Part shown: piece by piece, positions 8,270 to 44,987 of the stretch | Numbering within the stretch: position 1 is the stretch's first letter | Layout: every line of letters begins with the position of its first letter | Origin: an uncultured Gemmatimonadales bacterium | Lineage (GTDB): Bacteria; Gemmatimonadota; Gemmatimonadetes; Gemmatimonadales; GWC2-71-9 | Direction of reading: 5' to 3' | Assembly: GCA_963695555.1 (NCBI GenBank) | Contig: CAVOGR010000002.1 | Location: forward strand, 256,001 to 320,000 | Length of the DNA: 64,000 bases | Made by a program: the position numbers and the translations under genes | Notes under the pieces: generated by a model | The model's input: only the letters and a program-made list of their open reading frames with translations | Told to the model about the DNA's origin: nothing | Databases searched by the model: none

Positions 8270-9135
8270 CTACGGTTGAGGCGCGTTTCGCAAAGCAATC
8301 ATGGCCACGAGGCTGTCCTGGACGATCTGATTGGCCTGCCCCAGCCCCCGGCTGACCGCCGCCTGGGTGAGACCCCGAAGGGTGACTCGAACCGCCCGCA
8401 CGGCGGTCGCCGAGGCAGTGGGATTGCCGCTGCCATCGAAGTATTCGAGCAAGAATCCGTTGGCGGCGAGCGGGCCGAGCACCGGCTGGAGGGCGACCTC
8501 GCCGGCACTCACCGACCGGGCGCCCAGCCAGGTTTGCCCCGCCGTGGCGAAGGATTCGAGCCGCATGACCTCATAGATCCGCACCGGACTCCCGACCATC
8601 ACGTCCACGATCCCGCTCGGAGTCGCGGCGGAGATGTCGGCGAACGAAAGCGCGATGGCCGGTCGGCCGGCGCAGGTACTGGGCGCGACGCCGGTCAGCT
8701 GGCGATCGACCCAGAGGTCGTCGTTGGGGTCGGCGGGATCGACTTCGGCGAAGATCAGCACGCGATCGCGATTGTTGTTGGTGTCGATGTTCCGGAGTCC
8801 GTAGTACGGCATGTTCGGCACATCCCAGATTCGGATCTCGGTCGGGGTCACGAGACACGACACTCCGGACCCGCGCATGGCGCGATACTGGATCGCGTTG
8901 GCCCCCATGACTTGCAGGTCCGAGGCGGTCCGGCATTGATGCCCACCTCAGCTAGCTCGGAGGGCACGAGAAACGCCCCGGTTCGAAGACTTGACTGCAG
9001 GCCCACCCGCTCCGCTTGTTCGCGGGACAGGCGCTGGGTGTTCACCAGCATCCGAACCGTCGCGCCGCCCACGATCGCCATCATCACGACGACGACCATC
9101 AGCTCGACCAGGGTAAACCCGCGTGTGTTTCGCAT
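8270..9135 (-). CDS. PilW-like minor pilin, split by a 1-nt frameshift near 8930
   Basis: MRNTRGFTLVELMVV N-methylation motif in one frame; continues in ORF 8270..8908; one extra G (GCC GG[G] ACC GCC TCG GAC CTG) joins them. Confidence 0.78.
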
Positions 9136-9137
9136 GA

Positions 9138-9512
9138 CTATCGGCACCGGATGACGGTTTGCAGGGTATCGGTGTCGGTGCCGCCGGCCCGTGGGTAGGT
9201 GACGATGGCACTCACGGCTCTACTCGTGCCGGCGCCCGGCACGATCCACGTTTCCGTGACACCGTTGGCCGTGACGGGGCCGCCGCTCGCGAAGCCGCCG
9301 GCGGTGCACGGGGGGTTGGTGGTGTTGGCAAACGCGCGGAGGGTTTCCAGGCGCCGAGTGGCGACTTCCATCGCCATGGTCGTGCGCCGGCCCTGTCCGA
9401 TCATCCGCGTCGTCATGGCGGAGGACCCCATCAAGGCGATGACGCCGACGGAGAGGACAACAACCGCCACCAGCACCTCAACGATCGTGAATCCTGCTGT
9501 GCTCTTGGTCAT
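9138..9512 (-). CDS. PilV-like minor pilin
   Basis: AGFTIVEVLVAVVVL prepilin motif, 124 aa. Confidence 0.85.
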   Translation of the reverse strand: MTKSTAGFTIVEVLVAVVVLSVGVIALMGSSAMTTRMIGQGRRTTMAMEVATRRLETLRAFANTTNPPCTAGGFASGGPVTANGVTETWIVPGAGTSRAVSAIVTYPRAGGTDTDTLQTVIRCR

Positions 9513-9952
9513 TTGGTCATCACCCGGCCGAATCCGCTGATCATGACGGTATCGGCGTGAGAGCCCTTGGCCAGCTCGATCATGCCGCCGCTACGGCCAA
9601 AGCCGCGCGGGTCGACGGCGAGCATCGAGTCGGACGACGTCATGGTAACTCCGTAATCGTTGTACAGGTTCTGGACGGCAACGAGGGTGTCGAGGCCGCC
9701 GCCCGGCAGTGTGGCTGTGATCAACGCCGTGTTACCGCTGATGCGTACGGCGGTTGGACGATTGGTGGTCATGGCATTGGCACGGGCCTGGTTGTAGAGC
9801 GTAACGACCTTGGTCCTGGCCCCCCGCACGTCATTCTGCTGCACGACCGAGCGGAACCGCGGCAGGGCGAGCAGCATCAGCCCTCCCATCACCACGACGA
9901 CGATCAGCATCTCGCTCAGGGTGAATCCGGTCCGATTCTTAAGACCAGTCAT
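9509..9952 (-). CDS. FimT/GspH-like minor pilin
   Basis: TGFTLSEMLIV motif, ARANAM, DPRG; ATG at 9952. Confidence 0.85.
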   Translation of the reverse strand: MTGLKNRTGFTLSEMLIVVVVMGGLMLLALPRFRSVVQQNDVRGARTKVVTLYNQARANAMTTNRPTAVRISGNTALITATLPGGGLDTLVAVQNLYNDYGVTMTSSDSMLAVDPRGFGRSGGMIELAKGSHADTVMISGFGRVMTK

Positions 9953-10050
9953 TTCATGTCCAGTTCGTTCGGTGTGTAAAAACTGCCCATGCCCAACCCG
10001 ATGGTCTCCGCTTGGGCCACCCGGGGCGGGGCTCTCTTCTCTACTCCACC

Positions 10051-10066
10051 AGCACACCTCATGCCA
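10051..10066 (-). promoter_or_regulatory. sigma54 (-24/-12) promoter of the minor pilin cluster
   Basis: Minus strand TGGCATGAGGTGTGCT, GG-N10-GC spacing, ~100 nt upstream of the first pilin; AT-rich IHF-like site (TTACAACAACTTA, 10083-10095) next to it. Confidence 0.7.
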
Positions 10067-12223: not shown

Positions 12224-12537
12224 CACTCTCCTGGGGCAGTCGCGATCGCCTCGTCCAACGCCGCTTTCACGTCGAACAGTGACAGAGCTTTGAGACGCTC
12301 TTCCGATTCTTCCCGCGTTCGGCCCCACGCGAGATACTCGGTCTCCACGTGACCAACCGCGCTCGTGCCTTCCGGGGACCAACGAATGAAGAGAAGGGCC
12401 GCGCCGTAGCGACCGGTACCGTCTGGCTCGTCATCGGTGAAGATGCCGACCGAATACGCTTGGTCGTCGCTGCCGCGAAACGCAGCGGCACGCCCATGCT
12501 TCTCCATATACCCGCCTAGTGTGACTTCGGGCTTCAC
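12220..12537 (-). CDS. Hypothetical protein (105 aa)
   Basis: GTG start overlaps the proline dehydrogenase stop, and its stop overlaps the rsgA start. Confidence 0.7.
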   Translation of the reverse strand: MKPEVTLGGYMEKHGRAAAFRGSDDQAYSVGIFTDDEPDGTGRYGAALLFIRWSPEGTSAVGHVETEYLAWGRTREESEERLKALSLFDVKAALDEAIATAPGEW

Positions 12538-13466
12538 GAGCTCGGCCGCATCTCCCGCAGGATATTGCCCAACATGAACGCCACATTCGATGGGCGTTCG
12601 GCCAGTCGCCGCATCAGATAGGGATACCATTGGCTGCCGAAGGGTATGTAGACCCGCACGCGGGCCCCGCTCTCACGCAACTGCCGCTGGAGATCGCGGC
12701 GCACCCCGTACAACATCTGAAATTCAAACCGGTCAGCAGCAAGCCCGTGCTGGGCCACGAAACCTTGGGCGTGACGAATAATGCGTTCGTCGTGCGTCGC
12801 GATCGCCGGGTAATGCCCGTGGAGGAGCAGGCGTTCCATGAGGGTGATGAAGTTGGCATCGACATCGGCCTTCTTGGGAAAGGCCACGTCCGGTGGCTCG
12901 AGATAGGCACCCTTGCACAAGCGGACCCGAACGCCGTCTGCAATGAGGCGCTGGACGTCGTCTGCCGAGCGACGGAGGGCCGATTGGATGACGACGCCGG
13001 TGTGGGCTCCAAAGTGTGGGCCAATCTTACTGCGGTAGAATTCGAGCGTTCGTTGGGTGTAGTCGGAACTCTCCATATCGATCCGCACAAACCCACCGTG
13101 CTCCATCGCCTTGGACGCGATGGCGGACACGTTCGCCGCGCAGAGGCCTTCGTCGATGTCGAATCCCATCTGCGTTAGCTTGACGGAAACGTTCACCTCG
13201 AGGTCGTTGGCTTTGAGCTGGCCGAGCAATACCAGGTATTGATCGCGGGCGGCCTGGGCGGCCGGAGGGGCGTCGACACTCTCTCCCAGGAAGTCGACGG
13301 TCGCTCCGACGGTCAGGTCCCGGAGGCTGAGGGCTGCGGCCACCGCGTCGTCCACCGTTTCACCGGCCACGAACCGCGAGGCCATGCGCCAGGCCAGCCG
13401 GTTTCGGCGGACGAAGCGGTAGACTCCTCGGCGTTCAGAGAGCCAGAGCAGTCCTCGTCGCAGCAT
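12534..13466 (-). CDS. Monofunctional proline dehydrogenase
   Basis: SVKLTQMG, RIDME, RLCKGAY, ATHD, EFQMLYG, YLMRRLAERP. Confidence 0.95.
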   Translation of the reverse strand: MLRRGLLWLSERRGVYRFVRRNRLAWRMASRFVAGETVDDAVAAALSLRDLTVGATVDFLGESVDAPPAAQAARDQYLVLLGQLKANDLEVNVSVKLTQMGFDIDEGLCAANVSAIASKAMEHGGFVRIDMESSDYTQRTLEFYRSKIGPHFGAHTGVVIQSALRRSADDVQRLIADGVRVRLCKGAYLEPPDVAFPKKADVDANFITLMERLLLHGHYPAIATHDERIIRHAQGFVAQHGLAADRFEFQMLYGVRRDLQRQLRESGARVRVYIPFGSQWYPYLMRRLAERPSNVAFMLGNILREMRPSS

Positions 13467-13683
13467 GCTCGGCAGCGGGCTCCGTTCACAAGGGGTTCAC
13501 GTGCGGGGGATCACTTCCCGGGGCGCCCCGAAACTAGTCCCGCCGCTCGCGGCCTACAAGACGGGCAACGACCCCACACCGGGGTGTCGCACAGTGCCAC
13601 CCAGGGCCCGGGTCGAGACAAGGTGGTTGGTTTTAACTCGTTGTCATAAAAGAACTTAATGTGTTGGTCCGCGAGGGAAATTG

Positions 13684-13699
13684 TGGCATGAGTCTCGCT
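13684..13699 (+). promoter_or_regulatory. sigma54 promoter upstream of the riboswitch
   Basis: TGGCATGAGTCTCGCT, GG-N10-GC; AT-rich tract just upstream. Confidence 0.6.
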
Positions 13700-13761
13700 G
13701 TTTCGTGGGGTGCGGGCAGAGGCCCGCGCAGCAAAAAAACTCGATTGGAACGGACACACGA

Positions 13762-13852
13762 TCCGCCCGATAAGAGCACACCCGGAGCGATCCGGGGCCG
13801 CAAAACTAGAGGTCTCCCCTAGCGGGTGAGATAGCTCGGTGCCGAAGGTGGA
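13762..13852 (+). ncRNA. GEMM-I (c-di-GMP-I family) riboswitch, A20 variant (candidate 3',3'-cGAMP sensor)
   Basis: P1 TCCGCC/GGTGGA; GCACACC-CGGA-GCGA-TCCG-GGG-CCGCAAAAC (GNRA-capped P2); GGTCT...GATAG receptor stem; TGCCGAA 3' end. Confidence 0.85.
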
Positions 13853-13863
13853 AGGCAGTGCGG

Positions 13864-13897
13864 AGCGTGATCCCAGCAAGGGTCGCGCTTTTGTGTT
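13864..13897 (+). terminator. Intrinsic terminator of the riboswitch expression platform
   Basis: AGCGTGATCC-CAGCAA-GGGTCGCGCT followed by TTTGTGTT, 22 nt before the ATG. Confidence 0.7.
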
Positions 13898-13919
13898 AAA
13901 TCGGGCGTGGGAGCCGCAA

Positions 13920-14381
13920 ATGCCTCTCACGCTACACATCCTGAAACGCTGGGCCCAACTGGCCTGCGCCTTTGCCCCGGTGGCAATCGGCGGGTGCAGT
14001 GCCTTCGAGCCAAGCGACATTCCAGCTGGGGCCATTCCCATGGACCCTCCGGCGCACTTCACCGAGTGGTGGGCGCGCACGGAGCAGTGTTCGGGCTTGA
14101 CGGGATCCATGGCGCCGATCCACTGGTACGTGATGCCGAACGTCTCCTCGTTCCAGACGGACATCGGAGAGAAGGTCGGCCTCTGGATCAAGACCCAATC
14201 GCACGTCGCGATCGTCCTGGCGGAAACCTATGCCGATCACGAGTTAGTAGTGCGCCACGAGATGCTCCACCAGCTACTCCAGCGCGCGGGGCATCCGGCG
14301 GACTACTTCGATGGCAAATGCGGCCTGACCTGGGAGCGCTGGAGCGGTGGCCCGACGATGATGGCATCATCGAGGACGTAA
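13920..14381 (+). CDS. Small putative lipoprotein with HEXXH zinc motif
   Basis: Signal-like N-terminus ending IGGC; VVRHEMLHQLL...GH; two further Cys. Confidence 0.7.
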   Translation: MPLTLHILKRWAQLACAFAPVAIGGCSAFEPSDIPAGAIPMDPPAHFTEWWARTEQCSGLTGSMAPIHWYVMPNVSSFQTDIGEKVGLWIKTQSHVAIVLAETYADHELVVRHEMLHQLLQRAGHPADYFDGKCGLTWERWSGGPTMMASSRT

Positions 14382-14416: not shown

Positions 14417-14458
14417 TCAACGGGGCGTGGAGTGTCATCCACGCCCCGTTGACGTTTT
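14417..14458 (+). terminator. Intrinsic terminator (may be bidirectional)
   Basis: Perfect 15-bp stem TCAACGGGGCGTGGA/TCCACGCCCCGTTGA then CGTTTT, between convergent genes. Confidence 0.8.

Positions 14459-44915: not shown

Positions 44916-44987
<72 letters not shown>

Follow-up and report, generated by a model that had tools for sequence, protein, structure and literature searches.

The window analysed here is the whole 64,000-nucleotide stretch of DNA presented above, taken from the genome of an uncultured Gemmatimonadales bacterium (G000; a 3.57-Mb assembly in 14 contigs, 87% complete). The element in question is a riboswitch directly upstream of a gene for a 153-residue lipoprotein-like protein. 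A divergent gene for proline dehydrogenase flanks the switch upstream, and a terminator-like site closes the lipoprotein gene as a single-gene unit. The riboswitch has the GEMM-I fold, listed in Rfam as c-di-GMP-I (RF01051) after cyclic diguanylate (c-di-GMP). An initial annotation of the locus placed a complete GEMM-I architecture at 13757–13897, noted an adenine at the position that governs ligand specificity, and read the element as a candidate sensor of 3',3'-cGAMP (the cyclic dinucleotide of GMP and AMP) in an organism apparently outside the deltaproteobacterial lineages. The features of the locus and its riboswitch are collected in Table 1, along with a cyclase gene elsewhere in the genome.

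Table 1. Features of the riboswitch locus (window positions) and a cyclase gene of the same genome (contig position). P, paired region; J, joining region; RBS, ribosome-binding site; ORF, open reading frame.
Feature	Position	Strand	Basis or remark
Proline dehydrogenase gene, divergent	12534–13466	−	Flanks the switch upstream
P1, 5' strand (UCCGCC)	13762–13767	+	Pairs with 13847–13852; 83% of cells paired, 5 of 6 pairs changed on both sides, 31 sequences
J1/2 of the binding pocket, last base A13775	13768–13775	+	Rfam model positions 4–11
P2 (13776–77/13800–01 and 13781–86/13791–96), GNRA loop GCGA at 13787–13790	13776–13801	+	RNAalifold; compensatory changes in 3 of 6 upper pairs
J2/3 adenines equivalent to Vc2 A47 and A48	13802–13803	+	Rfam alignment; invariant (alignment columns A46–A48)
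P3 (13805–13816 with 13828–13840), variable loop	13805–13840	+	Eleven pairs, 5 changed on both sides, 98% of cells paired
J3/1 (GCCGAA); C13842 or C13843 is the Vc2 C92 equivalent, predicted to read a ligand guanine	13841–13846	+	Rfam; TGCCG invariant in 31/31
P1, 3' strand (GGUGGA)	13847–13852	+	Covaries with 13762–13767
Candidate anti-terminator partner of leader 13757–13766	13860–13869	+	Predicted from the RNAfold minimum-energy structure of transcript 13755–13879
Terminator-like hairpin, 11-pair stem 13863–73/13880–90, then U-rich tract	13863–13899	+	RNAfold
Helix X, 3' strand, complementary to 13765–13771 (P1 5' strand and start of J1/2)	13900–13906	+	Orthologue comparison
Hairpin S (13904–13/13924–33), sequesters RBS GGGAG 13909–13913 and encloses start codon 13920	13904–13933	+	RNAfold
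Regulated gene, 153-residue lipoprotein-like protein	13920–14381	+	ORF; switch directly upstream
Terminator-like site closing the single-gene unit	14417–14452	+	Consensus scan; 15-pair stem, then T-rich tail
Asn-type iron-sulfur GGDEF gene	G000:C7:583922–585631	−	570 residues; two Fer4, Fe-hydrogenase-like (Fe_hyd_lg_C), FeS and GGDEF domains

The RF01051 covariance model matches the window at 13765–13846 on the forward strand over all model positions, 1–87 (48.6 bits, E 1.9e-6; gathering score 35 bits), and the switch is the sole match to this model in the genome (E 2.5e-8 genome-wide). Beyond a score over the gathering value, the element has compensatory changes in P1, P2 and P3 and carries the pocket residues equivalent to A47 and C92 of Vc2, the aptamer of Vibrio cholerae. 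The full GEMM-I architecture of the initial annotation is therefore borne out by a match over the whole model and by covariation in three helices. Its range needs extending: 13757–13897 takes in the aptamer and the terminator-like hairpin, and the conserved expression platform reaches to about 13933.

Model position 11 ends a run of eleven unpaired positions that leads into the two-pair 'GC' base of P2, and it corresponds to G20 of Vc2. The Rfam alignment sets A13775 at this position, with G13774 as its 5' neighbour and G13776-C13777 on its 3' side, so that neither neighbouring G is position 20; a misalignment is ruled out by this alignment and by the invariant AGCA context. Of the features that mark the cGAMP-selective subclass GEMM-Ib, A13775 supplies the adenine at the Vc2 G20 position. 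A sequencing error at this base is likewise ruled out. Adenine is found in all 31 sequences of the same riboswitch class, drawn from 26 genomes, and contigs from 4/4 public runs (two RNA libraries and two probable DNA libraries) cover 13775 with A and list no other letter in 13708–13953. The specificity adenine thus stands, as does the placement of its host outside the deltaproteobacteria, since the closest loci belong to uncultured Gemmatimonadales, the best of them showing 98% identity across the adjacent proline dehydrogenase.

Covariation among the 31 sequences supports the fold. RNAalifold recovered P2 and P3, with compensatory changes in 8 of 19 pairs; for the covariation test, P1 (13762–67 with 13847–52) was added by hand to this consensus. 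Across P1, P2 and P3 together, 95.3% of cells form standard pairs and 13/25 pairs are changed on both sides, a result reached by none of 500 shuffles. When the 3' partners are slid by one to three columns, pairing falls to 30–45%. The adenines A13802 and A13803, equivalent to A47 and A48, and the TGCCG segment holding the C92 equivalent are invariant throughout the class. As judged from these sequence features, 13762–13852 is a working GEMM-I aptamer, predicted to bind a cyclic dinucleotide.

The surrounding leader is constrained as well. In a diverged strain represented by one public run, 20 differences fall within 13605–13707, none within 13708–13953, and differences resume from 13954; therefore the whole leader is under constraint. 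The same contrast sets the 5' limit of the constrained RNA, whether promoter or transcript start, near 13708. One RNA-library contig spans 13590–14245, which is not counted as proof of transcription because DNA can occur in such libraries.

The switch was compared across 61 genomes, namely G000 and members of three families, f1 (36 genomes), f2 (12) and f3 (12). GEMM-I matches occur in 45 of the 61; G000 aside, they are found in 34/36 genomes of f1, 9/12 of f2 and 1/12 of f3. Position 20 was read in 97 of 98 matches, the omitted one (G016:C82) scoring 34.4 bits, below the cut-off; 55 of those read have A there and 42 have G. The adenine-bearing matches comprise the core class of the window's switch (25 copies in 21 f1 genomes), its looser relatives (6 copies), class B (21 copies) and three other copies; guanine is present in class C (16 copies) and in a further 26. 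All five genomes of the window's genus (G000–G004) carry the switch with A at position 20. By sequence, the window's switch belongs to a distinct, always-A20 class conserved across one Gemmatimonadales family.

Several observations on the remaining classes stand on their own. Class C switches, which have G20 (for example, G002:C10), precede type IV pilin-like genes whose products carry an N-terminal G-F-T-L-x-E motif. One pilin-associated switch, at G021:C107, is of a type that otherwise has G20 and bears A at position 20, a hint that G and A may swap within one regulon. In G023 (C1:2199733–2199999), two class B aptamers with A20 stand in tandem about 90 bases apart before a single gene, resembling the tandem arrangement reported in Geobacter. 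In G045 (C3:2423795–2425146), the open reading frame immediately following an A20 switch has a canonical Asp-type GGDEF domain at its end; by its position, a cyclase itself is there placed under riboswitch control.

The meaning of A20 for ligand choice depends on the pocket around it. In Vc2, the two guanines of c-di-GMP are recognised by G20 and C92, one each; in the Geobacter aptamer Gs1761, A14 takes the place of G20 and forms a pair with cGAMP's adenine (PMC6140456, PMC5888326). PMC6140456 gives affinities of 53 nM for c-di-GMP and 120 nM for cGAMP with Vc2 G20A, and of 30 nM and 463 nM, respectively, with Cbe 1-2, a natural A20 aptamer from Clostridium beijerinckii; there, A20 alone is described as conferring dual binding of cGAMP and c-di-GMP and as insufficient for selectivity. 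In A20 pockets, the binding of c-di-GMP is sensitive to whether the adenine is protonated (PMC6140456). Selectivity is reported to be shifted by point mutations low in P2 (PMC9262584, citing Ren 2015). In the contact lists published for 3IRW and 4YAZ (PMC7288161), related by a six-residue offset (A14 = G20), the specificity adenine of Gs1761 is flanked by U13 and C15. In contrast, the Rfam alignment, set against these lists, shows that the bases beside A13775 (G19 and G21-C46 in Vc2 numbering) are those of Vc2 and not those of the cGAMP-selective Gs1761. By its nearest neighbours, the pocket would thus be a natural counterpart of Vc2 G20A.

The window's aptamer and Vc2 share the covariance model, the three helices, a GNRA loop on P2, the A47/A48 and C92 equivalents, and G19 with G21-C46; they differ in the adenines found here at the G20 position, as in the engineered G20A, and at the G50 position, and in their expression platforms. 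With the GEMM-Ib switches of Geobacter (Gs1761/pgcA, Gm0970 and pilM), the window's switch shares A at the G20 equivalent, the coexistence of G20 switches in the lineage, and genes for exported or surface proteins downstream; the flanks of the specificity adenine, U and C in Gs1761 according to the published contact lists (PMC7288161), are G and G here. Cbe 1-2, compared at A20 only, is likewise a natural A20 variant from outside the deltaproteobacteria, and it is reported to be bispecific with tighter binding of c-di-GMP (PMC6140456). An A20 GEMM-I aptamer beyond the deltaproteobacteria is accordingly already on record (C. beijerinckii, PMC6140456).

Retention of the C92 and A47 equivalents indicates a G-containing 3',3'-cyclic dinucleotide as the ligand, and the Vc2-like flanks lead one to expect a pocket like that of Vc2 G20A or Cbe 1-2. 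By analogy with these aptamers, c-di-GMP and cGAMP are both expected to be bound at nanomolar affinity, with no strong selectivity for cGAMP. The cGAMP-sensor reading of the initial annotation was right about the GEMM-I aptamer, A20 and the non-deltaproteobacterial host; the step from A20 to cGAMP is not supported by the present evidence, since A20 alone goes with dual binding. Another ligand is improbable, whether c-di-AMP, some linear dinucleotide or a mixed purine compound made by the Asn-type cyclase described below, as is a structured leader that binds none. The adenine (A13805) at the Vc2 G50 equivalent in this copy would suit such a view, as would a score of 48.6 bits that is modest beside the 60–82 bits of some relatives. 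Rfam also contains GEMM-I variant families for which no ligand is known. The invariance of the C92-equivalent segment and of the A47/A48 equivalents stands against another ligand, the C at C92 arguing for guanine. A c-di-AMP-binding variant required C92U in addition to G20A (3MUV, PMC7288161), and the strong covariation, together with the unchanged leader of the diverged strain, argues for a working aptamer rather than a ligand-free leader.

Four elements would compete for the 5' strand of P1 and its flanks: P1 itself, the candidate anti-terminator, the terminator-like hairpin and helix X. A duplex similar to the anti-terminator (13757–66/13860–69) is found in loci of the same genus and in G032:C73, and a comparable hairpin with a U-rich tract can be read in several orthologues. 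Helix X has at least six contiguous pairs, starting from the first G of the aptamer, in 20/25 core orthologues and all ten pairs in eight, and its 3' strand usually lies just 5' of the ribosome-binding site (RBS). The base of hairpin S overlaps this strand by three to four bases. The pairing of hairpin S, GCGUGG...CCACGC, recurs in orthologues ahead of two unrelated genes, and one copy, G021:C37, carries a compensatory change (GGUGUGG/CCACACC). The 3' strand of P1 ends 11 bases before the terminator-like hairpin, and the two do not overlap.

These elements suggest how the switch would work. Ligand binding would stabilise P1 and tie up its 5' strand, so that neither the anti-terminator nor helix X could form; the hairpin at 13863–90 and its U-rich tract would then end transcription, and in any RNA that read through, hairpin S would stay whole and hide the RBS. 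With no ligand bound, the anti-terminator would permit read-through, after which helix X would weaken hairpin S. Such a device would be an OFF switch, a direction that we hold to be somewhat favoured and that fits all copies, including one at G021:C50 that lacks the terminator-like hairpin. The layout proposed here matches that of the OFF switch Cd1 of Clostridioides difficile, in which aptamer and terminator can coexist and the anti-terminator needs part of the aptamer (PMC9262584); Cd1 differs in having G at its position-20 equivalent (G11). In contrast, the Geobacter pilM riboswitch works as an ON switch, its aptamer and its terminator being mutually exclusive (PMC9262584), whereas here both can coexist. 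The absence of the pilM layout would also count against a cGAMP-selective sensor.

The gene that is probably turned off by the switch encodes a small, probably exported protein with a lipoprotein-like N-terminus. No Pfam family matched it, and in a large protein collection it has only 13 relatives, the named ones all 'hypothetical protein'. Its HEMLH...GHP motif is invariant, as are H113, E114, H117, H125, C26, C57 and C134. A Foldseek search with its structure model (predicted local distance difference test score 78.8) returned nothing at E ≤ 0.001. In VIA-align, the best match to the model is the minimal zincin abylysin (Z 7.3, rated middling; root-mean-square deviation 3.6 over 89 residues), and zinc metallopeptidases make up most of the 50 VIA-align rows listed. 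The alignment and the invariant HExxH suggest, with middling confidence, a small zincin-like lipoprotein. This single gene would be the target in the window, and in other genera the switch's sister copies would control a STAS-domain gene. In G020:C4, G032:C73 and G021:C50, too, the switch stands before the lipoprotein gene; elsewhere in the class, the gene behind the switch mostly codes for about 100 residues, and the one such gene scanned, from G019, matches STAS_2 (PF13466).

Although the lipoprotein and STAS genes are unrelated, their first five codons (M-x-x-T-x, window 13920–13934) share conserved nucleotides, because this stretch doubles as the 3' strand of the RBS-hiding hairpin. From these sequences, the switch seems to have moved between genes along with the start region. 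Elsewhere in the window, three consecutive open reading frames on the reverse strand (8848–10057) have, from their translations only, N-termini like those of type IV pilins or pseudopilins (G-F-T-[LI]-x-E and then a hydrophobic segment), and a tRNA gene scoring 67 bits against RF00005 lies at 44916–44987, also on the reverse strand.

Whether cGAMP could be the signal in the cell depends in part on who might make it. Across the 61 genomes, the SMODS family (PF18144), the only Pfam family searched for enzymes of the DncV/CD-NTase kind, gave no hit above the cut-off, and this source was set aside. The Hypr GGDEF enzymes, to which GacA of Geobacter belongs, are described as carrying Ser or Thr at GacA 348 (344 in PleD; PMC6456294, PMC9140294), a strict GGDE[F/Y] motif and a residue other than Arg at the cross-dimer site, Tyr304 in GacA and R300 in PleD (PMC6456294). 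A degenerate DNA pattern for Ser/Thr Hypr enzymes, which requires G-H-x-x-G-[S/T] and GGDE[F/Y], was run without an Asp positive control and would miss unusual spellings; it found none in the genus (five genomes). In G000, whose assembly is 87% complete, each of the 13 strong GGDEF domains was read directly, in the published PleD register (D327, K332, N335, D344, L347, R359xxD362, GGEEF 368–372; PMC12943098), which fits them without gaps. Site 344 is Asp in 12 and Asn in one. Unlike Geobacter with its Ser-type GacA, the window's genus has, by this search, no Ser or Thr type, only an Asn type.

The Asn-bearing domain belongs to an iron-sulfur protein (Table 1), and a gene for a sigma-54 activator (L208:3321–4700, reverse strand; Sigma54_activat, HTH_8) stands immediately upstream of the one that encodes it. 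When the enzyme is aligned to solved cyclases, its Asn falls on the Asp and a Val on the first Arg of NRR. Orthologues are present in 33/36 f1 genomes and in none of the 24 genomes of f2 and f3. Among 28 readable orthologues, site 344, which reads the base, is N in 27, S in one and D in none; site 300, the cross-dimer site, is F in 12, Y in 11, V in three (G000 among them), I in one, L in one and never R; and the catalytic motif is GGDEF in all 28. Set beside the Hypr signatures, the enzyme thus has the strict motif and the non-Arg cross-dimer residue, with Asn in place of Ser or Thr. The literature search found no paper describing Asn at the Hypr base-reading site. The enzyme may make cGAMP or another mixed purine dinucleotide. 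Nine orthologue loci (L211–L215, L218, L223, L227 and L235) have one or two in-frame stops, TGA or, in L235, TAG, within extended open frames.

A second GGDEF family bears on this point. By pattern, Ser-type GGDEFs occur in 13/61 genomes, none in the window's genus, and 12 of 13 examined loci also have Tyr at site 300; such Ser344/Tyr300 enzymes are, from their sequences, good Hypr candidates. The family with Ser344, Tyr300 and a strict GGDEF motif is present in 11 Gemmatimonadales genomes (G030, G013, G022, G023, G048, G040, G060, G058, G038, G052 and G014), six of them in f3, where no A20 riboswitch and almost no GEMM-I was seen; five of the ten genomes with class B (A20) switches carry it. 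In G019, the copy of this family has Asn in place of Ser. The interchange of Ser and Asn in two families, with Asp absent, is the best argument for Asn as a Hypr-like state.

The Asn-type enzyme is found in 20/21 genomes with the core class, the exception being G008 (93% complete). Within f1, 28 genomes have both an A20 switch and a non-Asp cyclase, two have the switch only and seven the cyclase only. Four f2 genomes have A20 switches and no match to the Ser- or Asn-type pattern, and in the two of these that were checked in full, G045 and G037 (99–100% complete), Asp is present in all GGDEFs whose site could be recognised (7/7 and 5/5). In f3, six genomes carry Ser-type cyclases but lack an A20 switch. 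No statistic was drawn from switch against cyclase type because related genomes are not independent and the association runs along the division between families.

These data bear on a cGAMP-selective sensor, a functional GEMM-Ib switch paired with the Asn-type iron-sulfur GGDEF as a Hypr-like synthase, which would amount to a separate cGAMP pathway with redox or oxygen input in this Gemmatimonadales family. We consider it a serious possibility and the less probable one. The invariance of A20 through the class speaks for it, and the A20 aptamers reported in PMC6140456 and PMC8835794 all bind cGAMP. So do the restriction of the iron-sulfur enzyme to f1, its residues at sites 344 and 300 and its unvarying GGDEF motif, the Ser/Asn interchange in G019, and the near-complete overlap with the core class. 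Against it, the published Hypr definition names Ser or Thr and the enzyme has Asn (PMC6456294, PMC9140294). The co-occurrence tracks phylogeny, with seven family genomes holding the enzyme without an A20 switch and G008 showing the reverse; four f2 genomes have A20 switches without a Ser or Asn match, the two checked in full having only Asp344; and the pocket neighbours are Vc2-like. A search of the literature on cGAMP in Gemmatimonad bacteria, judged by title and abstract, found nothing on the topic.

The explanation that we prefer, at a probability of roughly 50%, is a functional GEMM-I aptamer that acts as an OFF switch and whose ligand in the cell is most likely c-di-GMP. The nucleotide would be supplied by canonical Asp-type GGDEFs among the 12 Asp-bearing domains of the genome, and the set point for c-di-GMP would lie at weaker affinity than for G20 switches; a second ligand, cGAMP, would come into play only if it is a product of the Asn-type enzyme. 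Sequence cannot tell which signal is read: c-di-GMP as the main ligand has about even odds, cGAMP, alone or with c-di-GMP, is a lesser contender, and any other ligand comes far behind.

Several points weigh against this explanation. The consensus terminator scan did not flag the hairpin at 13863–90. In computed ensembles, the probability that the RBS is unpaired is 0.01 when the RNA folds freely and 0.00 when the aptamer is enforced, and because the RBS is paired in both states, equilibrium folding leaves ON against OFF undecided; the OFF direction rests on competing helices read by eye and on RNAfold. As to the ligand, this class never departs from A20, whereas the other classes mostly have G20, in some cases within one genome (for example, G002, G010 and G025), and an A20 class beside G20 classes would also fit two different ligands. 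The iron-sulfur GGDEF likewise counts against c-di-GMP as the sole signal, since it has a strict motif, reads the base with Asn and carries Val as its cross-dimer residue.

The riboswitch itself is of a known kind; novelty may lie instead in the Asn-type iron-sulfur cyclase and its possible pairing with the switch. The broadest proposal, which we regard as less likely than not, is that f1 runs a second dinucleotide pathway in which the iron-sulfur Asn-type GGDEF, with Tyr, Phe or Val at the cross-dimer site, would make cGAMP or a mixed purine signal that the invariant-A20 class reads to control the STAS-domain gene and the secreted zincin-like lipoprotein. If cGAMP were the ligand, RNA-based cGAMP signalling would reach a new phylum, one widespread in soil and sediment. 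It would be tied to a new kind of synthase, an Asn branch of the Hypr cyclases linked to iron-sulfur clusters, and the Ser/Thr-only rule for predicting cGAMP producers from sequence would be widened. If the ligand is c-di-GMP, as we prefer, this family would provide a well-documented natural case in which an invariant A20 is not a marker of cGAMP, which would bear on the annotation of many metagenomic A20 GEMM-I hits.

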